Shown here: one piece after another, positions 3,481-21,028 of the stretch
Numbering within the stretch: position 1 is the first letter of the stretch
How the letters are laid out: every line of letters begins with the position of its first letter
NCBI GenBank assembly: GCA_042571705.1
Contig: JBHPFV010000002.1
Coordinates: forward strand, 46,822 to 110,821
Source: Candidatus Omnitrophota bacterium
GTDB taxonomy: Bacteria > Omnitrophota > Gorgyraeia > JAFGHF01
Direction of reading: 5' to 3'
Length of the DNA stretch: 64,000 nt
Notes under the pieces: generated by a model
What the model was told of the DNA's origin: nothing
The model's database searches: none
What the model saw: only the letters and a program-made list of their open reading frames with translations
Made by a program: the position numbers and the translations under genes

Positions 3481-5202
3481 TCATTTGTCTCGCTTTTGCT
3501 TGATTGCCCGGAGCAGTTTTTCCAAGGGCAGGGTGTTGATCAGGTCTTGCTTCTGCAGCCATCCCCGCCTGGCAACCGTAACCCCTAACGGCATAAATTG
3601 TAAATGCTCAAGGGTATGGGCGTCAGTGTTAATCGACATCCGCACCCCTAATTCCTGCGCCCGGCGACAGTTAACATCGATCAAATCCAATCGATCAGGA
3701 AAGGCGCTGATTTCCATAAACGTATTAGTCTCAGCGGCCTTTTTCAATACCGCTTCGATATCTAAAGCATAAGGCTCACGCTGAGCTAACAGCCTGCCCG
3801 ATGGATGGGCGATGATGCTGACATATTTATTTTCCATTGCCGAGATCATCCGCTGAGTCAGCTGTTGCCGGCTTTGCTTAAAACCAGTGTGGATAGCGGC
3901 GACGACGATATCCAGCTGCTTTAATACTCTATCCGGGTAGTCTAAGCTGCCGTCTGACTTGATATCCACCTCACTGCCGGATAAAATTCGAAAACCTTTT
4001 AATTTTTTATTTATTTTATGAATAAGTTCGCTCTGTTTCTTTAAACGATCAATACTTAAGCCATTGGCAATTTTTATTGATTGCGAGTGATCGCAAATTG
4101 CAATATACTGATAGCCCATGGCCGCCGCGGACCGAACCAGATCTTCAATCTTGACCGTGCCGTCACTCCAGCGAGAATGCAGATGTAAATCCCCCTTGAT
4201 TGATGAGAACTCGACTAGTTTGGGTAAGGCACTATTCTGTGCCGCCTCAATTTCACCCCTGTCTTCACGCAGCTCCGCGGGTATCGGGTCGAGTTTAAGC
4301 TGCCTGTATATTTCCTGTTCAGTCTTTCCGGCTAGCCATTTTTTATTTTTAAATACTCCATATTCATTAATCTTTAAGCCTTGCTTGATCGCTAACTGAC
4401 GCAGTTTGATATTGTGCTGTGTAGACCCGGTAAAATATAATAATGCCGCCCCAAAGCTTTTCGGCTCGACCACACGCAGATCGACCTGGATATCATTCTG
4501 GCTCAAAATGCTGGATTTTGTCGCGCCTTTTGCTAACACCCGTTTTACTTGTGGCAACTGGGTAAAAACATCCATAACTTTTTTTGGCCGCACAGATGTA
4601 ATCAGGATATCAATGTCTCTGACCGTTTCTTTCTTGCGCCTTAATGATCCGGCCGGCTCAATTTGCTTGATTTCCTTTAGTTTTGCTAAGGCGCCGGTAA
4701 ACTCATCCGCTATGGCCTTAGCCTGCGCCAAAGGCATTCTTTCTTTAGCTTTTTTAACTAAGGCGATCCCCCGGCGAATATTCTCTTCTGTTTTTTCTTT
4801 AAACCCGGGCAAATCCCTGATCTGATGCTTCGACACCGCTTGTTCTAAGTGTTTTAGACTTCTGACGTTTAATTTGTCATATAGGGTCTTGGCGGTCTTA
4901 GGTCCTACTCCGGGCACAGACATCAAAATAGTCAGCCCTTCCGGTATATTGTCGCAAAGCTCTTGATAAAATTTAAGCTTGCCGGTGTTGACAATCTCCT
5001 TTATTTTCTCGGCTAAGTCCTGACCGATTCCGGGGATTTGCTCCAGCGCCTCTTTGGCTGCTAAGTCTTCCACGGCTTGAGGCAGCGACTCAATATTTTG
5101 TGCAGCCTTCAGATAGGCCCGAATGCGAAACGGATTTTGATCCTGAATCTCTAAAATCTCAGCGATTTGACGAAAGATCTGGGCTACTTCCTTATTTTTC
5201 AT
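3481..5202 (-). CDS. polX: DNA polymerase X family protein with C-terminal PHP phosphoesterase domain
   Basis: Pol-beta-like N-terminus (HhH, GIGxxxA), 573 aa, C-terminal PHP histidine motifs (HxHS..., DAH). Matches the bacterial PolX architecture. Confidence 0.85.
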   Translation of the reverse strand: MKNKEVAQIFRQIAEILEIQDQNPFRIRAYLKAAQNIESLPQAVEDLAAKEALEQIPGIGQDLAEKIKEIVNTGKLKFYQELCDNIPEGLTILMSVPGVGPKTAKTLYDKLNVRSLKHLEQAVSKHQIRDLPGFKEKTEENIRRGIALVKKAKERMPLAQAKAIADEFTGALAKLKEIKQIEPAGSLRRKKETVRDIDILITSVRPKKVMDVFTQLPQVKRVLAKGATKSSILSQNDIQVDLRVVEPKSFGAALLYFTGSTQHNIKLRQLAIKQGLKINEYGVFKNKKWLAGKTEQEIYRQLKLDPIPAELREDRGEIEAAQNSALPKLVEFSSIKGDLHLHSRWSDGTVKIEDLVRSAAAMGYQYIAICDHSQSIKIANGLSIDRLKKQSELIHKINKKLKGFRILSGSEVDIKSDGSLDYPDRVLKQLDIVVAAIHTGFKQSRQQLTQRMISAMENKYVSIIAHPSGRLLAQREPYALDIEAVLKKAAETNTFMEISAFPDRLDLIDVNCRRAQELGVRMSINTDAHTLEHLQFMPLGVTVARRGWLQKQDLINTLPLEKLLRAIKQKRDK

Positions 5203-5204
5203 TT

Positions 5205-6266
5205 CTAAAATTTATTTAAGCGCTGCAGCGCTTTAAACTTTTGCACTTGGCCGACTTTTGCCTCGGCCACGGCCTGTTTAAGAATCTGAATAGTGCGGTC
5301 GTAACCGCTCCTGTTGACCGGATAAGGATGGCCGTCTTTGCCACCGTGAGCAAAACTAAAACGTACCGGATCGCGAAAAGAAGGACTCAAGCCCCAAATC
5401 AACTCAGAAATTAACGCTAGCGACCGGATAGTCTTGGGCCCCACTCCGGGTGTGCCTAATAATTGCTCAAAGTCTTGCGGCTGACGCAGATAAGTCTTCA
5501 AAAGTATCCGTTTTAAATTCTCCGGCCGGATGTCGTCCAAAGAAACCGGATGTCGCGAGCTGAGCCGCAACTTATTTAATCCGGCTAATACCTTTTCCGG
5601 TTTAAGCGCGCTCAAATCGGCGCTACGCCTGCGGCAGCTTTGACTCTCCTGGGCGACCATATTCAAGGTCTTGTGTTTTTGGTCGCAACAAACCGCATGA
5701 TGCGGCTCACAGACAAAATCGTTGAGCGTCTCACTCAGCCAATGGTAGCGTCGAGCATATCGAGATTGGCGATTCATCCCTTGCTGGACCACCGACCACT
5801 TTCCCTGCTTGGTAAAAATAAACATATGCTGGTAAAGAGTGTAGCCGTCTTGTAAGGCGGCATTATCTACCTTGGCTGACATTCTACTGGCATAAATTAG
5901 TTTATCGGGAACAACATCAATTAAACGGGCCTGGCCAATCCGATCAATTTCTTCCGGAGTCTTACGTGAAGTGGCCCCCTTGCCCCCGGCAAAGTAAAGC
6001 CCTAACTCCCGGCCAGTGTCTTGTAGTCCCGCTTTTAACGCTGCGCAAACCGTAGTAGTCAGGCCGCTGGAGTGCCAATCAAAACCTAAACAGCAGCCAA
6101 AGGCCTGAAACCAAAATGGGTCACTGATCCGGTTCAGGAACTCATCGGCGCCGTGTTCTTTGACAATTGCGTAAACAATCTCCCGAGCCAGGCCGCTCAT
6201 CCGGCTGAACAGCCAACGCGGGGCCTGCCCATAATGCAATGGTAAATTAGCAATACCGGTGCGCAT
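5205..6266 (-). CDS. DUF763 family protein with helix-hairpin-helix motif
   Basis: N-terminal PLHYGQAPRWLF signature recalled for DUF763. Internal HhH LLGTPGVGPKTIRSLALI. Located immediately downstream of polX. Confidence 0.5.
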   Translation of the reverse strand: MRTGIANLPLHYGQAPRWLFSRMSGLAREIVYAIVKEHGADEFLNRISDPFWFQAFGCCLGFDWHSSGLTTTVCAALKAGLQDTGRELGLYFAGGKGATSRKTPEEIDRIGQARLIDVVPDKLIYASRMSAKVDNAALQDGYTLYQHMFIFTKQGKWSVVQQGMNRQSRYARRYHWLSETLNDFVCEPHHAVCCDQKHKTLNMVAQESQSCRRRSADLSALKPEKVLAGLNKLRLSSRHPVSLDDIRPENLKRILLKTYLRQPQDFEQLLGTPGVGPKTIRSLALISELIWGLSPSFRDPVRFSFAHGGKDGHPYPVNRSGYDRTIQILKQAVAEAKVGQVQKFKALQRLNKF

Positions 6267-7469: not shown

Positions 7470-8099
7470 CTACCCTGCTATAAGCTGGGCGGGCAGACCA
7501 ATATCGGCTACAGTCAATTTGCCAACATATGCTTTAGCCGGTGAGCAGGTCAACCCCTTTTTTACCAAACTAAAAGTAACAGTGTGTTTGGCCTTTATCG
7601 CTACTCCACAGACACGGCCTGAGGTCGCATCAATCCCCGAAGGGACATCTAAGGAAAGGGTCGGTTTTGCCGCCGCATTAATAGAACTGATCACTTCGGC
7701 GTAAGGCTGGCGCAGATTACTTTTTAACCCAATGCCAAAAATGGCATCAACCACTAAGTCGCACTTTTTTAATGTACTCTTTAAAGCAGCTGCATTATTA
7801 GCAACAACATTCAGCCCTTGCTTACGCAGAATTTGATAATTGATCTTGGCTGCATTCGGCATTTTTCTACTGCGGCCAAAGAAGAAGACCTTAACTTTTA
7901 GCCCCCAATTGATTAGGTGTCGGGCGCAGACGAAACCATCGCCGCCATTATTCCCGGGCCCGCAAAAAATTACTACTTTAGTCTGACCGGCTCTTAACAT
8001 CTTTAGTGCGCAAACAGCGCTCACCCGGCCGGCGTTTTCCATCAAGACTACGGCCGGAATCCCAAATCTGGCCACAGCAATCCGGTCTATTTGCTGCAT
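7470..8099 (-). CDS. nnrE: NAD(P)H-hydrate epimerase (stand-alone YjeF N-terminal domain)
   Basis: VLMENAGR..., CGPGNNGGDGFV motif. Only 209 aa, with no C-terminal dehydratase domain. Confidence 0.75.
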   Translation of the reverse strand: MQQIDRIAVARFGIPAVVLMENAGRVSAVCALKMLRAGQTKVVIFCGPGNNGGDGFVCARHLINWGLKVKVFFFGRSRKMPNAAKINYQILRKQGLNVVANNAAALKSTLKKCDLVVDAIFGIGLKSNLRQPYAEVISSINAAAKPTLSLDVPSGIDATSGRVCGVAIKAKHTVTFSLVKKGLTCSPAKAYVGKLTVADIGLPAQLIAG

Positions 8100-8142: not shown

Positions 8143-8931
8143 TTAAGCGAATTTAGAGTTGAAATCGGAAGGGATGCTGTATTGACGTTCGGTTAATTTA
8201 GCGGACAAGATCCTGCGGATATTAAAAGTGCGCAGAGCTACACGCAAATGACAAAAACCCACTATTCTTCCCAATTCTAAAGCATAAATATCGATTTGGC
8301 GGCGGCGTCTTCCGTCTTGGGCATTGGTTGAAGAATATTCAATTTCCAGTGTCCGGTGTTCCCGGAAGGCCACTTCGATTAGCCCGCTGACTGTTTGACC
8401 TTGGGCCCAGCTGACCGGAATCGTCTCCAGCCTTAAAGCCCGACGATAAAGCAGATGACCTCGGGTCTTCCCGTATTCATAAAGTTCGCGCGTAACTTGC
8501 ACGTCCTGTTGGCAATATTTAATCAGCTGATCAATCTCCCCGGCGCGGAAATATTTGAGCGCATCCAGGCCGGTGGCGCTTTTTCCGTGATTAAGCGTGG
8601 CCTGGGCAAGGGCGTTTAGCCCCAAGCGGTGGCCTAAGTAGCTCTCGACTTCAGTGAAAATATCCAATTTTTTAAGTTGAGTCAGATCAAAATTAAAGTA
8701 TGGCTGTAAGACCGGAAAGTCAAACTTAATAATATTAAAACCAATAATGAATTCCGCTGCCTTGAGATACGGCTCCAGCAGGTTTAAGTCTTTTTCTAGA
8801 AAGTTCTTGTACTGGCCTTCTGAATATGAGTAAATCCCCACCACCGAAACGCCCATCAAATCTAAGCGCCGGTTTTCCACTTGGCCAAAGCTCTTTTTAG
8901 TCTCTAAATCCAAGACGATTTTTCCAGACAT
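8143..8931 (-). CDS. RNase H-like (PolB-exo/YprB-type) 3'-5' exonuclease fused to a C-terminal WYL domain
   Basis: N-terminus IVLDLETK ... GFNIIKFDFPVL ... YCQQDV (DEDD-like exonuclease fold). C-terminus LEIEYSS..RRRRQIDIYALELGRIVGFCHLRVALRTFNIRRIL fits the WYL consensus (..Y..R.v.P..l...WYL.a.C.lR...R.FrldRI). Confidence 0.6.
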   Translation of the reverse strand: MSGKIVLDLETKKSFGQVENRRLDLMGVSVVGIYSYSEGQYKNFLEKDLNLLEPYLKAAEFIIGFNIIKFDFPVLQPYFNFDLTQLKKLDIFTEVESYLGHRLGLNALAQATLNHGKSATGLDALKYFRAGEIDQLIKYCQQDVQVTRELYEYGKTRGHLLYRRALRLETIPVSWAQGQTVSGLIEVAFREHRTLEIEYSSTNAQDGRRRRQIDIYALELGRIVGFCHLRVALRTFNIRRILSAKLTERQYSIPSDFNSKFA

Positions 8932-8996: not shown

Positions 8997-9254
8997 TTAC
9001 CCTGTTACCTTAAATACCAGGTCATGTTCCCGCACATGCTCATTAACTTTCAAACCGACCTGCTCGCCTACTTTGGCTTCCTGGACTTGTTTATGCTCAA
9101 TCTCTAATGCGCTCACTGTCTGCTGGAAGTCGCTGGTGTGGCCCTTAAAATGCAAGGTCTCGCCAACCTTAATCCCCTCTGCCTCAACCTTAATTATGCC
9201 CACACCGATGTGCCCAAAATAATGTGTGACTACGCCAATCTTTTTCTCTTCCAT
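8997..9254 (-). CDS. Small conserved hypothetical protein (85 aa), possibly a beta-barrel resembling EF-Tu domain 2
   Basis: Intact ORF in an operon-like array with PilZ and rnhB. No recognisable catalytic motif. Confidence 0.4.
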   Translation of the reverse strand: MEEKKIGVVTHYFGHIGVGIIKVEAEGIKVGETLHFKGHTSDFQQTVSALEIEHKQVQEAKVGEQVGLKVNEHVREHDLVFKVTG

Positions 9255-9269
9255 TAGCCACCATCCTTT

Positions 9270-9644
9270 TTAAGGTTTATTGTTATGGTCGATATGCTCA
9301 GAGACATAACGATTGAGATTAAAGCGATCGAAATCACTGATCCCCGTAAATTCAACCCCGGTATCATACTTTTCTTCTGCCCCGTCTTTGATTTTGCGCT
9401 GCCAGACCACTCTGCCTAAGGCATGGATCGGGTCTTTTAAATCCGGGACCTTAATCAACAATTGCAGAGGTGTATCCGCAGGAAAGACCTGATCCAATAC
9501 TAAACAGAGACCGCCGGCGCTGATATTTTTTGAAAACACATCTATCCCGCCCGGCTTGCCAATTATAGTATAGCTTACGTCTACGGAAGTCTCTAAACGC
9601 GCGAACTTCCTTCTTTCTTCACTGGGCCATCCTCTTTTTTGCAT
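9270..9644 (-). CDS. PilZ domain protein (putative c-di-GMP receptor)
   Basis: RxxxR motif (RRKFAR) and D/NxSxxG motif (NISAGG) in the correct order. 124 aa. Confidence 0.7.
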   Translation of the reverse strand: MQKRGWPSEERRKFARLETSVDVSYTIIGKPGGIDVFSKNISAGGLCLVLDQVFPADTPLQLLIKVPDLKDPIHALGRVVWQRKIKDGAEEKYDTGVEFTGISDFDRFNLNRYVSEHIDHNNKP

Positions 9645-9656
9645 CAGTCCACCTCC

Positions 9657-10316
9657 TTATCTTTTAAACTTTACAAACTTGCTGACTGGATAAAAACTGT
9701 GGCGATGAATGGGTGTAATCCCGTATTTTCTGATTGCCCGCAGGTGGGCTTTGGAGTAATACCCGCGATTGGAACTAAACTGATAACGCGGGTAAACAAC
9801 GGAATAATAACTCATCAACTCATCCCTGAGGACCTTAGCCACAATTGAGGCTGAGGCGATGGAGAGACTTAGCTGATCCCCCTTAACAACAGTGCGATAT
9901 GGGACTGGTAGCAATCCATCATTAAATCTACCGTCAATCAGAGCAAACTCAGCTGATACGCTTAAGGCCTGCAGGGCCTGTTTCATTGCCAAAATAGTCG
10001 CTTGAAGGATATTCACCCGGTCAATCACAAGATTAGGTATGATTCCGATGCCAATGAAGCTCTGGCGCGTTATTTCTCGAAAGGCGTCCCGGCGTTTTAC
10101 AAAAGAAAGCTTCTTGGAATCAAAAATCCTGTTCGCAAACGAATAATTTTTCAGGATCACGGCCGCGGCCACCACCGGGCCGGCTAAGGGACCGCGTCCA
10201 GCCTCATCTACTCCGGCGATCAGCTTAAACTTTTTAGGAAACAGGCGCCGCTCATATCTTCTTAATTTCGCATTATGCCTGTTCCAATTACTGGGCGATT
10301 TTTGTCTTTTTGCCAA
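9657..10316 (-). CDS. rnhB: Ribonuclease HII
   Basis: AGVDEAGRGPLAGPVV active-site motif. 219 aa. Confidence 0.9.
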   Translation of the reverse strand: MAKRQKSPSNWNRHNAKLRRYERRLFPKKFKLIAGVDEAGRGPLAGPVVAAAVILKNYSFANRIFDSKKLSFVKRRDAFREITRQSFIGIGIIPNLVIDRVNILQATILAMKQALQALSVSAEFALIDGRFNDGLLPVPYRTVVKGDQLSLSIASASIVAKVLRDELMSYYSVVYPRYQFSSNRGYYSKAHLRAIRKYGITPIHRHSFYPVSKFVKFKR

Positions 10317-17071: not shown

Positions 17072-18431
17072 TTTTGTATAAATTGATATATTTTTTTGCC
17101 GAACTATCCCAGGAAAAATCGTAACCCATCACCCGCCGAATTAACTCAGGCCACTGTTGTTGCGGGCGCTGATACAATTCTTGGGCTCGGGCGATGGCTT
17201 TGAGCATCTGGGCCCCGGTATTTTTATGATAAACAAAACCATTGCTAACTCCTGAGCCGGGATCGTAATCGCTAACCGTATCGGCCAGACCCCCGGTCTG
17301 GTGCACAATCGGGATGGTCCCGTATTTAAAAGCGATCAACTGGCCCAACCCGCAAGGCTCATAAAAAGAAGGCATCAGAAAAAAATCGGATCCGGCATAA
17401 ATCTTATGCGCCAGCATTTCATCAAAGCGTAAATTGACTGAAAACCGGCCACTGAATTTTTTGCTGAGCTCCCCAAGCGATAGATGATACCTTTGTTCTC
17501 CGGTACCCAAAATCACCACTTGTAACTTCAAATCGAGCAGTTGTTCAATAGTGGAGATAACTAGTTCCATTCCCTTCTGTTCGGCTAAACGCCCGACCAT
17601 CCCGATCAGCGGCAGCTTTTGATCTGCAACTAATCCCAATTCGTCTTGCAGACCGAGTTTGTTAATGGCCTTATCGGCATAACTTTGCTCCCCATATCGC
17701 TGAAAGATTTTATCATCATTTTGCGGATCCCAGACTTTAGTGTCTAAACCGTTGATAATACCGATTAAATCTTTCTTACGGCCCCTTAAGACACCATCCA
17801 ATCCGCAGCCAAACTTTAAGGTCTGAATCTCCTCAGCGTAAGTCGGACTGACCGTAGTTAGAAAATCGGAAAAAACCAGTCCCCCTTTGAGCAGATTAAT
17901 CTTGCCGAAGAACTCCAGGCCGCGGATACTGAATAACTCTTTGTCCAAACCGGTCTGATCAAACTTATCTCTGGGGAAAAGACCCTGATAGGCCAGGTTA
18001 TGAATAGTAAATATTGTTTTTGTCCCGTTAAAAAAATGGTCATTAGCAAAAACTGTTTTTAAATAAACCGGGATCAGCGCCGTCTGCCAATCATTACAAT
18101 GGATTATATCCGGTTTAAAATCAGCCTGTTTAATTAATTCTAACGTCTTTTGACAAAAGAACGTAAACCGTTCTAAGTTATCCGGATGATCCCCTTGCTC
18201 TGTTCCGTATAATCCGGACCGGTCAAAATATTTTTCGTTTTCAATAAAATAGACCTCTATATTCTGGCCTAATTTTCCGGCCTTGTTTTGCAGACCGCGA
18301 TATTTAGGCAGGGCCACCTTAACTTGGCAGCCTAATTTTTCTAATGCTTCGGGCAAGGCCCCGCTGACATCAGCCAGACCGCCTGTTTTTGCAAAAGGAA
18401 ACACTTCACTGGAGCAGAATAAAATCTTCAT
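17046..18431 (-). CDS. glgA: Glycogen (starch) synthase GlgA
   Basis: N-terminal KTGGLADV motif of the GT5 family. 461 aa. Confidence 0.85.
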   Translation of the reverse strand: MKILFCSSEVFPFAKTGGLADVSGALPEALEKLGCQVKVALPKYRGLQNKAGKLGQNIEVYFIENEKYFDRSGLYGTEQGDHPDNLERFTFFCQKTLELIKQADFKPDIIHCNDWQTALIPVYLKTVFANDHFFNGTKTIFTIHNLAYQGLFPRDKFDQTGLDKELFSIRGLEFFGKINLLKGGLVFSDFLTTVSPTYAEEIQTLKFGCGLDGVLRGRKKDLIGIINGLDTKVWDPQNDDKIFQRYGEQSYADKAINKLGLQDELGLVADQKLPLIGMVGRLAEQKGMELVISTIEQLLDLKLQVVILGTGEQRYHLSLGELSKKFSGRFSVNLRFDEMLAHKIYAGSDFFLMPSFYEPCGLGQLIAFKYGTIPIVHQTGGLADTVSDYDPGSGVSNGFVYHKNTGAQMLKAIARAQELYQRPQQQWPELIRRVMGYDFSWDSSAKKYINLYKNVLSGRQN

Positions 18432-21028
18432 TCCATATTTAACCAGTCTGGCCCGGTTTTAATCGCTACCTTGACCGGGACTTTTAATTTGATTACGTTC
18501 TCCATCTTGCTCGCAATCAACTCTTTAGCCAGATCCCGTTCCTCAGGCGGCAAAGAGAAGACTAGCTCATCGTGAACCTGAATAATCATTTTAGTTCCGG
18601 GGCATTGCTCTTTTAAGCTGCGATAGATTTCTATCATCGCCGCTTTAATCAAGTCGCTGGCTGAGCCTTGCACCGGGGCATTAATCGCCACCCGTTGAGC
18701 AAACTGGCGCACGTTCTCCTGCCGGCTTTTGATCTCAGGGATATAACGCCGGCGATTTAAAAGCGTAGTCACAAACCCGTTGCGCTGTGCCTTTTCAATC
18801 TGCCGCTGGATAAAGCTTTTCACTCCCGGATAGCGGTTAAAGTAGGACTCGATAAATTCCTGGGCCTGGGCTTGGTTAATCTTTAGGTCCCGGGCCAAGC
18901 CGAAAGCGCTGATGCCATAGATAATGCCAAAGTTAACCGTCTTGGCGGTATCGCGCATTTTTCGCGAGATCTCTTCTTGGGCCTGGCCAAAGATTAAAGA
19001 AGCCGTAAAGGCATGGATGTCTCGGTCTTGATTAAAAGCGCTGATTAGATTCTTATCTCCAGACAAATGGGCCAGGATTCTTAGTTCAATCTGCGAATAA
19101 TCTGCGGATAAAAGTAGATCGCCTTTTTGGCCGGGAATAAAGATTTGCCTGATGCTGGCGCCTAACGCAGTCTTAATCGGAATATTTTGTAAATTGGGAC
19201 CGCGCGAAGAAAGCCTTCCGGTAGCCGTGCCGGTTTGATTAAAAGAGGTGTGAATCCGGCCTGTGCGCGGATGCAAAAGCTTAAGCATCCCGTCAAGATA
19301 CGTAGATTTTAACTTCGAAATTTCTCTGAATTCCAAAAGTTGATCAGCAATCGGGTGCATCGCGCTAAGTTTCTTGAGTACTTCGGTATCGGTAGAAGCC
19401 CCGGTTTTGGTGCGTTTAATTTTAGGTAATTGTAATTTTTCAAACAGGACTACGCTCAATTGCTTAGGTGAATTAATATTGAACTCGGTTTCAGCCAGCG
19501 CGTAGATTTCTTTAGTTAATTTTTTTATTTTCTGATCAAACTTCTGCGCGGTTTGTAACAGCAGTTGTTTATCTAAGCAGACTCCCTGCTGCTCCATTTC
19601 CGCTAACACCGCAACTAAAGGAACTTCAGTATCCTTAAACAAAGCAAGCAGATTATTTTGCTTTAACTGCTGCTTAAGTATTTTACTCAATTTTAAGATG
19701 ATCGCAGCCAATTGCGGATTAAATCCGTCTGAGGATTGTTCCAGCCTGCGGTTAAGATACTCTAAGGCCAACTCACCCAAGCTATATGTTAATTTAGCGG
19801 GATTTAGTAAATAGGCGGCTAACATAGTGTCGAAGTCTATACCCCCAAGAGTAATGCCGTAGTTAGATAAGATTACCTTGGCGTATTTTAAATTATGCCC
19901 GATCTTTTGCACTGCAGCGCTTTCTAAAATTGGCTTAACTTTGGTAAAGAATGATTTTTGCGGCGTGAAACCAACGATCTCATTTTTTCCAAAAGCAAAG
20001 GCTATTCCGGTTATTTTAGCCAGCATCGGATTGGCTTGATCTGTCCCGAGATATAACCCTAAGCAATCACAGCGAGCAATCTTTGCTAAATTTTCATCTA
20101 CTTCTTTTTCATCAGAAACAATCTTATAATCGATCTTTTCCTCAAAATCTTGGGCCACATTTTGCATTAAGCCCTTGAATTCTAATTCCTTGAATATGCT
20201 AAACAGCCTTCGCTGGTCAGCTTCAACAAGCTCCAATTGTTTAAGCAGGGCTTGGGGCGGCCTTTGAATTAAGTCCGGAACCCTTAACTCAAGCTGGGCC
20301 AATTCTTTACTCATTTGGGCCTGCTGACTAAATTGTTTAATCTTTGCCGAGCGCGACTTATTTTTTATTTCATCTACTTTGGCCAGTACCTGATCCAAAG
20401 AGCCGAATTGCCTAATTAGCTCAACCGCGGTAGCCTCCCCAATCCCGGGCACTCCGGGAATATGATCAGTCTGATCACCGGCTAAGGCCATGATGTCCAC
20501 AACCTGTTCTGGGGCTACCCCATATTTTTGCTTGACCCACTCCGGTCCTAAGATTGTATTATCTTTGTGCGGATTAATTATTTTGATTGAATCGCCGACA
20601 ATTTGCAGGATATCCTTATCTCCGGTCACGATAAACACATCTTGCTTAGGTCCGCAGAGCATCTTAGCCAAAGTAGCAATCACATCATCGGCCTCGTATC
20701 CTTGCTGCTCGAAAACAGAAATATGATAAGCGCCCAGGACCTTTTTGACCACCGGCAGCTGGATACTTAAGTCATCCGGCATGGGTTTGCGGTGGATCTT
20801 ATAGTCGGCATATCTTTGATGGCGAAAAGTAGGCCCTTTTAGATCGAAAGCCACCCCCAGGTACTCCGGCCGATGTTCGGCAATTAGCTTGTTGAGCATG
20901 GTGATGAAACCATAAACCGCGTTAGTCGGCATACCCTTAGAGGTAGCCAGCCCTTTAATAGCGTAAAATGCACGGTAACAGAAGGAATTACCGTCAATCA
21001 GAAAAACTTTTTTCTTCATGGAATCCAT
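18428..21028 (-). CDS. polA: DNA polymerase I
   Basis: 5'-nuclease N-terminus (LIDGNS..YRAFYA), central exo-like region, polymerase palm motifs (DYSQIELR, HDE). 866 aa. Confidence 0.95.
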   Translation of the reverse strand: MDSMKKKVFLIDGNSFCYRAFYAIKGLATSKGMPTNAVYGFITMLNKLIAEHRPEYLGVAFDLKGPTFRHQRYADYKIHRKPMPDDLSIQLPVVKKVLGAYHISVFEQQGYEADDVIATLAKMLCGPKQDVFIVTGDKDILQIVGDSIKIINPHKDNTILGPEWVKQKYGVAPEQVVDIMALAGDQTDHIPGVPGIGEATAVELIRQFGSLDQVLAKVDEIKNKSRSAKIKQFSQQAQMSKELAQLELRVPDLIQRPPQALLKQLELVEADQRRLFSIFKELEFKGLMQNVAQDFEEKIDYKIVSDEKEVDENLAKIARCDCLGLYLGTDQANPMLAKITGIAFAFGKNEIVGFTPQKSFFTKVKPILESAAVQKIGHNLKYAKVILSNYGITLGGIDFDTMLAAYLLNPAKLTYSLGELALEYLNRRLEQSSDGFNPQLAAIILKLSKILKQQLKQNNLLALFKDTEVPLVAVLAEMEQQGVCLDKQLLLQTAQKFDQKIKKLTKEIYALAETEFNINSPKQLSVVLFEKLQLPKIKRTKTGASTDTEVLKKLSAMHPIADQLLEFREISKLKSTYLDGMLKLLHPRTGRIHTSFNQTGTATGRLSSRGPNLQNIPIKTALGASIRQIFIPGQKGDLLLSADYSQIELRILAHLSGDKNLISAFNQDRDIHAFTASLIFGQAQEEISRKMRDTAKTVNFGIIYGISAFGLARDLKINQAQAQEFIESYFNRYPGVKSFIQRQIEKAQRNGFVTTLLNRRRYIPEIKSRQENVRQFAQRVAINAPVQGSASDLIKAAMIEIYRSLKEQCPGTKMIIQVHDELVFSLPPEERDLAKELIASKMENVIKLKVPVKVAIKTGPDWLNME

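Follow-up and report, generated by a model that had tools for sequence, protein, structure and literature searches.

A DEDDy 3′-5′ exonuclease fused to a WYL domain in Candidatus Omnitrophota: one member of a widespread, uncharacterised protein family of uncultured bacteria

The DNA analysed in this study (the window) is a stretch of 64,000 nucleotides (nt) from contig JBHPFV010000002.1 of a Candidatus Omnitrophota bacterium. The gene of interest, here called exo-WYL, is located at 8143..8931 on the minus strand of the window and encodes a protein of 262 amino acids (aa). It was taken from the list of open reading frames (ORFs), its domains were annotated with Pfam, and an identical public protein was found in NCBI (MFC1698455.1, Candidatus Omnitrophota bacterium), where it is labelled "WYL domain-containing protein". 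An earlier reading made from the letters of the DNA alone (the sequence-only reading) had proposed that the gene fuses a PolB-exo/YprB-type 3′-5′ exonuclease to a WYL domain. The Pfam search that it suggested supported the fusion, as both domains scored above their gathering cut-offs. The WYL model (PF13280) matched residues 185–245 with 28.9 bits (cut-off 21.8, E = 1.1e-6), and RNase_H_2 (PF13482) matched residues 30–153 with 25.9 bits (cut-off 22, E = 1.1e-5). Two further exonuclease models, DNA_pol_A_exo1 (23.2 bits, cut-off 23.6) and DNA_pol_B_exo2, fell slightly under their cut-offs. A PADLOC WYL model matched at 2.3e-9, the PADLOC matches being to generic WYL models only.

All the motif strings on which the sequence-only reading was based occur in the translation where it had put them. 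In the exonuclease half these are IVLDLETK (residues 5–12), FNIIKFDFPVL (65–75), and YCQQDV (139–144), and in the WYL half IDIYALE (213–219), GFCHLR (225–230), LRTFNIRRI (233–241), and ERQY (248–251). An AlphaFold model, built on an alignment of 54 sequences, was confident, with a predicted local distance difference test score (pLDDT) of 94.8 and a predicted template modelling score (pTM) of 0.90, and its two halves matched known WYL and proofreading-exonuclease folds. Exo-WYL is therefore a genuine fusion of a PolB-exo/YprB-type DEDDy 3′-5′ exonuclease and a bona fide WYL domain. With 689 homologues, conserved catalytic residues, and a confident model, the two-domain match far exceeds chance. 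No helix-turn-helix (HTH) domain was found in the protein by Pfam or by fold, the N-terminus being occupied by the exonuclease domain. No WCX domain was found either, and the protein stops about 12–17 residues past the WYL barrel. Since it has neither an HTH nor a WCX domain, exo-WYL is no WYL transcription factor.

The DEDDy 3′-5′ exonuclease domain comprises residues 1–176 (8404..8931, minus strand) and was defined by PF13482, the catalytic residues, Foldseek, and 44% identity to relatives. The domain type agreed with the sequence-only reading, which had ended it at about residue 165; the domain runs on to about residue 176 and closes with a β-hairpin (159–172) and a conserved W175. Exo I consists of D8/E10 (DLET, motif DxE) and Exo III of Y139/D143 (YCQQD, motif YxxxD, with Tyr instead of His), and both are invariant in the alignments of 54 and 50 sequences. 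Exo II consists of N66/F70/D71 (NIIKFD, motif NxxxFD); neither alignment shows any variation at F70 or D71, while N66 is invariant in alignment A1 and conserved to at least 90% in alignment A2. When 54 and 117 homologues were aligned, the DEDDy residues of the active site proved invariant or at least 95% conserved. Because the active site is conserved, the enzyme should be active, and we predict the exonuclease to be catalytically competent. A Foldseek search of the PDB with the N-terminal half returned the proofreading exonucleases of T7 DNA polymerase, KOD, 9N, Tgo, Pol epsilon, and Pol zeta, with a probability of 1.00 for the T7, KOD, 9N, and Pol epsilon exonuclease domains. When PDB sequences were searched with the exonuclease profile, the exonuclease domains of Pol delta and T7 polymerase were the best matches (about 1e-3), and the nanoRNase C NrnC, or "diDNase", matched weakly (E 0.015–0.12).

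Over 172 residues, the exonuclease half shares 44% identity with the C-terminal domain of an MrfA/YprA-type helicase, and it shares 44% as well with a stand-alone exonuclease of 193 aa (172–178 residues for both relatives). The helicase-linked and stand-alone relatives and the exonuclease half of exo-WYL all terminate at ...PV(E/S)W. The long relatives consist of DEAD, Helicase_C, WHD_HRQ1, and MZB (the MrfA Zn-binding domain), with the exonuclease at the C-terminus. This kinship explains why many members of the family carry the JGI name "DEAD/DEAH box helicase domain-containing protein". The fused helicases and the stand-alone exonucleases of about 190 aa share with exo-WYL the exonuclease lineage, the DEDDy motifs, and the C-terminal β-hairpin. 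The helicase and MZB domains belong to the fused helicases only, whereas exo-WYL lacks both and has a WYL domain after the exonuclease instead. In a neighbour-joining tree of the exonuclease domains, the helicase-linked forms made up one group (39 of its 44 members), and 31 of the 34 WYL-fused forms fell into a second group, interleaved with 17 stand-alone exonucleases. The WYL-fused proteins thus group with the stand-alone exonucleases and apart from the helicase-linked ones. The exonuclease half belongs to a DEDDy lineage associated with MrfA-type helicases and is not an MrfB orthologue.

One relative without a WYL domain was seen in its genomic setting. A contig scan with the single exo-WYL protein as query returned one locus, an exonuclease-only relative in a Bdellovibrionales metagenome-assembled genome (JAFEAO010000003.1, locus L001, 5896–6522). 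It is 39% identical over residues 5–175. Its gene, on the opposite strand, is at most about 1.5 kb away from rpsP, a KH-domain gene, and trmD.

The WYL domain spans residues ~181–250 (8182..8391, minus strand) and was supported by PF13280, PADLOC, Foldseek, profile matches to Pif1 and PafBC, and conservation. In the AlphaFold model it forms a helix (181–190) followed by a five-stranded Sm/SH3-like barrel. Foldseek superposed it on CapW (7tb5) and BrxR (7qfz) with a root-mean-square deviation of 1.4–1.6 Å over 75–76 residues at 25% identity, and on PafBC (6sj9) with 2.9 Å over 84 alignment columns. The nearest solved sequences to the family profile in this half were the C-terminal WYL domains of the Pif1 helicases DdPif1 and SsPif1 (8bnv/8bns, E 1e-6 to 1e-5). 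The Pif1 WYL domains, from Deferribacter and Sulfurihydrogenibium, outranked PafBC, PafC, CapW, and BrxR in the profile search of PDB sequences. The Pif1 WYL domain is an accessory module that binds single-stranded DNA (ssDNA), and mutation of its arginines impairs ssDNA binding and helicase activity, according to PMC9964779, which cites Andis 2018. The Trp-Tyr-Leu tripeptide that gives the domain its name is absent from exo-WYL, where positions 222–224 read R-I-V; the commonest residues in the family are Y-F-E. The tripeptide is degenerate in genuine members too, as in DriD, which has NYL (PMC9186387), so its absence is no argument against WYL membership.

A basic and aromatic surface is conserved on the WYL half. 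Among 117 homologues, Y199 and F236 were 100% conserved, and R211 (99%), R230 (97%, R/K), R234 (99%), R240 (97%), and K245 (94%) were nearly so. In the alignment by hidden Markov model, R491, R495, and R501 of DdPif1 stand opposite R230, R234, and R240 of exo-WYL. These seven residues (Y199, R211, R230, R234, F236, R240, and K245) are putative nucleic-acid-binding residues. By motif spacing rather than superposition, positions of the WYL half would also correspond to the DriD ssDNA contacts Y168, R176/R178, R204, W206, and R207 (PMC9186387).

In another homologue, P0124 (369 aa), an acidic stretch of about 100 residues is inserted between the exonuclease domain and the WYL domain, so the two need not sit rigidly together. 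This insertion and the interleaving of fused and stand-alone forms in the tree fit an accessory, tethered WYL module.

The word-indexed search found 689 homologues at E ≤ 1e-3 among protein clusters at 90% identity, and nearly all of those among the matches listed were 258–290 aa long and carried PF13482 and PF13280. Taxonomic spread was judged from source names and metagenome loci; the sources named were Candidatus Omnitrophota/Omnitrophica, Patescibacteria (including Komeilibacteria), and Dehalococcoidia. An exhaustive search of representatives at 50% identity gave 5158 relatives of the family profile. Among the best 150 of these 5158, the full architecture of an exonuclease with a C-terminal extension was found in 33–34; 55 others were stand-alone exonucleases, 43 were exonucleases with an N-terminal extension, and in 8 the exonuclease domain formed the C-terminal end of proteins of 630–986 aa. 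The fusion had been called uncommon, and this holds for cultured organisms and characterised proteins; for uncultured bacteria it does not hold, given the 689 clusters at 90% identity and at least 34 clusters at 50% identity. The architecture is common, and it is not well characterised.

The fusion was not found in cultured phages, where the exonuclease half matched phage polymerases weakly and nothing else, nor in plasmids, whose two matches were unrelated proteins similar to the WYL half alone. IMG/VR viral contigs did not yield the fusion either, and predicted viral structures gave no full-length match. A phage, plasmid, or defence-island origin of the gene was rejected on these grounds. 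Among earlier surveys, Müller et al. 2019 do not include the exo-WYL class among the WYL architectures shown with at least 100 sequences (PMC6789036). The survey of Makarova et al. 2014 (PMC4012209) combines WYL with a "3′->5′ exoRNase", which may be the exo-WYL family. In the literature we found no paper that describes or tests a WYL-exonuclease fusion. The architecture is therefore already catalogued and generically annotated but uncharacterised, and the gene in the window is one further member.

In the window, exo-WYL closes an array in the order rnhB, PilZ, 85-aa protein, exonuclease; this order had been noticed in the sequence-only reading, and the ORFs and Pfam agree with it. The gene directly upstream of exo-WYL (8997..9254, minus strand) encodes a β-barrel protein of 85 aa that resembles domain 2 of EF-Tu (GTP_EFTU_D2, weak and under the Pfam cut-off). 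Homologues share 73% identity with it in related Omnitrophota and 45% in Patescibacteria, and its NCBI label is "hypothetical". A homologue adjoins exo-WYL or lies within a few kb of it in 4/4 type-A and 7/33 type-C loci (the types are defined below), with coordinates 1446–1703 in L007 and 3862–4119 in L010/L011. The 85-aa protein is possibly a partner of exo-WYL, or simply a conserved small housekeeping protein. The stand-alone PilZ protein of 124 aa (9270..9644, minus strand; PF07238, 1.5e-14) has intact motifs for binding of cyclic di-GMP (c-di-GMP), namely RxxxR (RKFAR) at residue 12 and NxSxxG (NISAGG) at residue 40. PilZ is restricted to the clade of the window (L004–L006), where it lies between rnhB and the 85-aa gene in an operon of ribosomal-protein and tRNA-modification genes. 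The rnhB gene upstream in the array (9657..10316, minus strand) encodes RNase HII (PF01351, 1.6e-34) and is syntenic in L004–L006.

On the other side, 43 nt downstream of exo-WYL, a YjeF_N gene of the NAD(P)H-hydrate epimerase type (7470..8099, minus strand; PF03853, 9.2e-55) is kept in L004–L006. It is probably co-transcribed with exo-WYL but functionally unrelated. A scan for promoters and terminators near exo-WYL gave counts equal to those in shuffled sequence, and for this reason no operon boundary can be called. Farther downstream, in the co-oriented block, lies a PolX-PHP DNA polymerase (3481..5202, minus strand; Pfam HHH_8, DNA_pol_B_thumb, and PHP), copies of which are 67–68% identical in L004 and L006, near exo-WYL. 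A DUF763 gene (5205–6266, minus strand; PF05559, E 2e-132) lies directly upstream of PolX-PHP with a gap of 3 nt. In L006 (6866–7936), DUF763 is in the same block and a flavodoxin gene lies between DUF763 and PolX.

The window also encodes UvrA and a DNA polymerase I (18428–21028, minus strand; aligned to Klenow, E 7e-64) whose proofreading domain is apparently dead. In comparison with the Klenow reference, Y, G, A, F, and L stand in place of D355, E357, D424, Y497, and D501, respectively. Since Pol I proofreading is apparently lost, a stand-alone exonuclease of proofreading type may matter more in the same genome. More speculatively, exo-WYL could serve as a trans-acting proofreader or 3′-end cleaner that offsets the exonuclease-dead Pol I. 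No MrfA-type helicase was found among the 10 ORFs of the window that were scanned, the four largest included, nor in the annotated related exo-WYL loci. The window is strongly biased in strand: of the 54 ORFs with 150 aa or more, 53 lie on the minus strand, and every 2-kb bin has a negative GC skew. The whole 64 kb yielded neither tRNA genes nor Rfam matches.

The genomic context of the family was sampled in 12 loci with gene calls and 80 metagenome loci, in which ORFs were clustered and assigned by nearest reference. A "family" of 237-aa ORFs on the opposite strand, probably a gene-calling artefact, was left out of the clustering. No neighbour was universal across the context types. Type A (n = 4) comprises the window and close Omnitrophota (58–100% identity) and has the order rpsP-trmD-rplS-rnhB-PilZ-85aa-exoWYL-YjeF_N, with PolX a few genes on. 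Type C (n = 33) is Patescibacteria-like, with exo-WYL proteins of about 258 aa, and has the order (85-aa homologue)-Translin-UvrD-flavokinase-exoWYL-CutA1-SHMT, the last being serine hydroxymethyltransferase. Here UvrD was upstream on the same strand in 20/20 loci with at least 2 kb of upstream sequence. Type D/E (n = 15) covers further clades, with a Mur ligase upstream and a PF04308 (YkuK-type) RNase H-like gene directly downstream. In type-B loci, exo-WYL is followed by an RNase Z-like metallo-β-lactamase-fold (MBL) hydrolase, which has a full-length, sub-threshold likeness to Apyc1-like cyclic-nucleotide phosphodiesterases. The recurrent neighbours that act on nucleic acids are RNase HII, PolX, UvrD, Translin, the YkuK-like protein, and the RNase Z-like hydrolase. 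None of the ~90 exo-WYL loci showed a defence island or a partner from a defence system, CRISPR-Cas, CBASS, and BREX included. The neighbourhoods of exo-WYL are clade-specific and consist of housekeeping or nucleic-acid enzymes.

Several individual loci showed further features. In L026 (4342–4836) and other D/E loci, the PF04308 "RNaseH_like" gene (YkuK/DUF458, E 1e-37) lies about 40 nt downstream on the same strand, so that a second protein of RNase H fold is paired with the exonuclease in two clades. In another Omnitrophota clade (L008 1607–5138, L009, and L012), exo-WYL is part of a tightly overlapping unit of four genes. The unit encodes a protein of about 460 aa with a weak match to circularly permuted ATP-grasp, exo-WYL, a membrane protein of 189 aa that carries a bacterial PH domain, and an MBL hydrolase of 249 aa that resembles RNase Z and cyclic-nucleotide phosphodiesterases and scores under all curated cut-offs. 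In the Patescibacteria locus L007 (6118–9606), a HepT/MNT toxin-antitoxin pair and a pair resembling a diversity-generating retroelement (bAvd and a reverse transcriptase) are inserted between CutA1 and SHMT, downstream of exo-WYL; these inserts are missing from the otherwise syntenic L010/L011.

We compared exo-WYL with Bacillus subtilis MrfB (YprB, PDB 8UN9), which we take to be a member of Pfam family PF13482. Like exo-WYL, MrfB has a proofreading-like DEDD exonuclease with a C-terminal non-catalytic accessory domain and a long αC helix, and its top structural neighbours (archaeal PolB, Pol epsilon, and NrnC) are the kinds of protein matched by exo-WYL (PMC11194089). MrfB is a DEDDh enzyme (H258), whereas the exo-WYL family is DEDDy (Y139); MrfB is extended at its N-terminus by about 100 aa and carries a tetratricopeptide repeat (TPR) domain, and exo-WYL has neither feature, its first motif starting at residue 5 (PMC11194089). 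MrfB also pairs with MrfA, and no such helicase was seen in the 10 scanned ORFs of the window, nor in those related loci that were annotated. In PDB sequences, 8UN9 was not detected by the exo-WYL profiles (alignment A1 at E ≤ 1, alignment A2 at E ≤ 10). Exo-WYL was therefore rejected as an MrfB orthologue, on the grounds of DEDDy against DEDDh, WYL against TPR, and the failure of the profiles to detect 8UN9.

The Pif1-WYL helicases (TePif1, DdPif1, and SsPif1; 8bnv/8bns) have the same design as exo-WYL, a single C-terminal WYL domain without HTH or WCX on a nucleic-acid enzyme, and the ssDNA-binding arginines are conserved in both. The catalytic partner differs: it is a 5′-3′ helicase of superfamily 1B (SF1B) in Pif1 and a 3′-5′ exonuclease in exo-WYL, and the strand geometry may differ as well. 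The WYL regulators PafBC, DriD, CapW, and BrxR share the domain itself, as the barrel superposes on CapW and BrxR and the ligand-contact positions of DriD are conserved. They have HTH and WCX domains and a transcriptional output, whereas exo-WYL lacks both domains, has an enzymatic output, and has no adjacent defence or damage regulon. RNase D and NrnC have a DEDDy core like that of exo-WYL, and RNase D also has C-terminal nucleic-acid-binding accessory domains. However, the accessory domain is HRDC in RNase D and WYL in exo-WYL, and the RNase D-type Pfam models were under cut-off on exo-WYL. NrnC is a stand-alone, ring-forming enzyme to which exo-WYL is only weakly similar by profile. As judged from its sequence, exo-WYL is comparable to the Pif1-type arrangement of an enzyme with an accessory WYL domain, and its exonuclease belongs to the DEDDy branch of the YprB-like exonucleases.

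We consider, with a probability of about 50%, that exo-WYL is an autonomous 3′-5′ exonuclease acting on single-stranded 3′ ends, that its WYL domain holds the substrate, and that DNA repair is its likely field. MrfA and MrfB form a pair of a 3′-5′ helicase and a 3′-5′ DNA exonuclease that repairs mitomycin-C damage (PMC11194089, PMC12458937). The nearest relatives of the exonuclease half are linked to MrfA-type helicases, and the nearest WYL domains are of the Pif1 accessory type. The recurrence of nucleic-acid enzymes beside the gene, the negative searches of phages, plasmids, and viral contigs, and the loss of the proofreading residues in the Pol I of the window also count in favour of this reading. 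The tyrosine/arginine surface of the WYL domain would grip the strand upstream of its 3′ end, leaving that end to be trimmed in the exonuclease site. Such binding would raise affinity and processivity and would direct the exonuclease to ssDNA tails, gaps, or flaps. The WYL domain would thereby take the place of the MrfA-type helicase that is covalently joined to the exonuclease in the sister proteins, and would repeat the role that it has in Pif1 helicases. The cellular role would be chromosomal housekeeping, with clean-up of 3′ ends in DNA repair, and not phage defence. We infer that the WYL half binds the substrate strand, that this strand is DNA rather than RNA, and that the enzyme works in repair. 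As the substrate of the exonuclease is a single strand and the Pif1-type WYL domain binds ssDNA, the ligand is most simply the substrate. A substrate handle is more likely than a ligand switch of the defence type.

Several points weigh against this interpretation. DEDDy enzymes include RNase D and NrnC, and the Sm-like fold of the barrel is a classic RNA binder. The sequence of exo-WYL is compatible with a DNA or an RNA substrate, and the exonuclease profile did match NrnC-type proteins, if weakly. The trmD operon, the RNase Z-like MBL, and the Translin contexts suit RNA processing equally well. The adjacency of UvrD in type C may reflect lineage synteny, since SHMT is nearly as constant there (20/24). 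The basic cluster of the WYL half is kept in only about 60–80% of 34 divergent representatives at 50% identity. Finally, ssDNA is an allosteric signal in DriD, PafBC, and CapW (PMC9186387, PMC11662680, PMC11804915), which keeps gating among the explanations to be weighed.

Of the other explanations, one takes exo-WYL as an exoribonuclease of the RNase D/NrnC kind, with the WYL barrel as the equivalent of HRDC, that would trim tRNA or rRNA precursors or degrade short RNAs in phyla with reduced RNase repertoires. We regard this as rather unlikely. It agrees with the name "3′->5′ exoRNase" given to a WYL-fused enzyme in PMC4012209, and with the position of the gene at the end of an rpsP-trmD-rplS-rnhB operon, the Bdellovibrionales exonuclease-only relative also being near rpsP and trmD; the other neighbours in these operons are functionally mixed, however, and include YjeF_N, flavokinase, and CutA1. 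An RNase Z-like MBL adjoins exo-WYL in type B and Translin is nearby in type C. The weak matches to nanoRNase C/diDNase point in the same direction, but the best fold and sequence matches are proofreading domains of DNA polymerases and not RNase D, and DNA-repair helicases of the MrfA type carry, as a fused domain, the nearest relatives of the exonuclease (44% identity). As for the WYL half, DriD binds single-stranded RNA, more weakly than ssDNA (PMC9186387), and Cas13d is stimulated in its RNA cleavage by an accessory protein with a WYL domain (cited in PMC6789036); the closest WYL sequences nevertheless bind ssDNA. A second explanation keeps DNA as the ligand and separates it from the degraded strand: the WYL domain would sense damage-derived ssDNA as an allosteric trigger and switch on a latent exonuclease. 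We hold this to be unlikely. It draws on ssDNA being the established allosteric ligand of WYL regulators (PMC9186387, PMC11662680, PMC11804915), with the ligand-contact residues conserved in exo-WYL, and on B. subtilis MrfB, which crystallised in an inactive form and for which activation by DNA was proposed (PMC11194089). The pTM of 0.90 would suggest a fixed domain interface able to pass a signal, yet one member tolerates an interdomain insertion of about 100 aa. The pocket of the regulators is built jointly with the WCX domain and a linker (PMC9186387), both of which are absent from exo-WYL; close stand-alone exonucleases do without a WYL domain, and the closest WYL sequences are of the Pif1 accessory type.

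The third explanation is a nuclease gated by a small-molecule or nucleotide messenger, such as c-di-GMP or a cyclic nucleotide, in phage defence or signalling, which we consider very improbable. Two genes upstream of exo-WYL, the clade of the window has the PilZ protein whose c-di-GMP motifs are intact, and the type-B MBL hydrolase with its sub-threshold Apyc1-like resemblance follows exo-WYL; each of these neighbours is nonetheless limited to one clade, and the MBL stays far under all the curated cut-offs, its best score being that of an RNase Z-like protein. PADLOC WYL models from CRISPR-associated signalling match the domain, but only as generic WYL models. MbpR's WYL domain binds c-di-GMP (PMC11880434), although its key residue E268 falls, by residue number and not by alignment, outside the WYL core of about 70 residues that is shared (PMC11880434). 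The conserved surface of exo-WYL is the arginine/aromatic set used for ssDNA, the ~90 loci have no defence island or partner, and the fusion was not found in the phage, plasmid, and viral-contig collections. We speculate, as a long shot, that the WYL domain is a true sensor of c-di-GMP or pGpG, echoing the PilZ neighbour, the NrnC-like core, and the WYL domain of MbpR. If this were true, exo-WYL would be the first WYL-gated exonuclease or messenger-linked nanoRNase, in Omnitrophota and Patescibacteria.

The sequence-only reading had also taken the fusion to imply a ligand-gated nuclease, pointing to the defence and DNA-damage contexts usual for WYL domains. This part was not supported: the neighbours are housekeeping genes, no viral, phage, or plasmid fusion was found, and the WYL domain is nearest to the Pif1 accessory type. 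Exo-WYL is not rare, the present evidence does not make it a ligand-gated nuclease of defence, and it is not a new type of system. The family of which it is a member is a housekeeping one, widespread in uncultured bacteria and uncharacterised.

The characterised WYL domains occur in transcription regulators, Pif1 helicases, and the accessory protein of Cas13d, and exo-WYL would add an exonuclease as a partner. A study of exo-WYL would help to define the DEDDy branch of the MrfB-like repair exonucleases. Cooperation between the WYL barrel and the exonuclease, if demonstrated, would broaden the picture, now taking shape, in which WYL is a general module for single-stranded nucleic acids. The family is widespread and conserved in uncultured Omnitrophota and Patescibacteria with small genomes, where conserved nucleic-acid enzymes are likely to matter.

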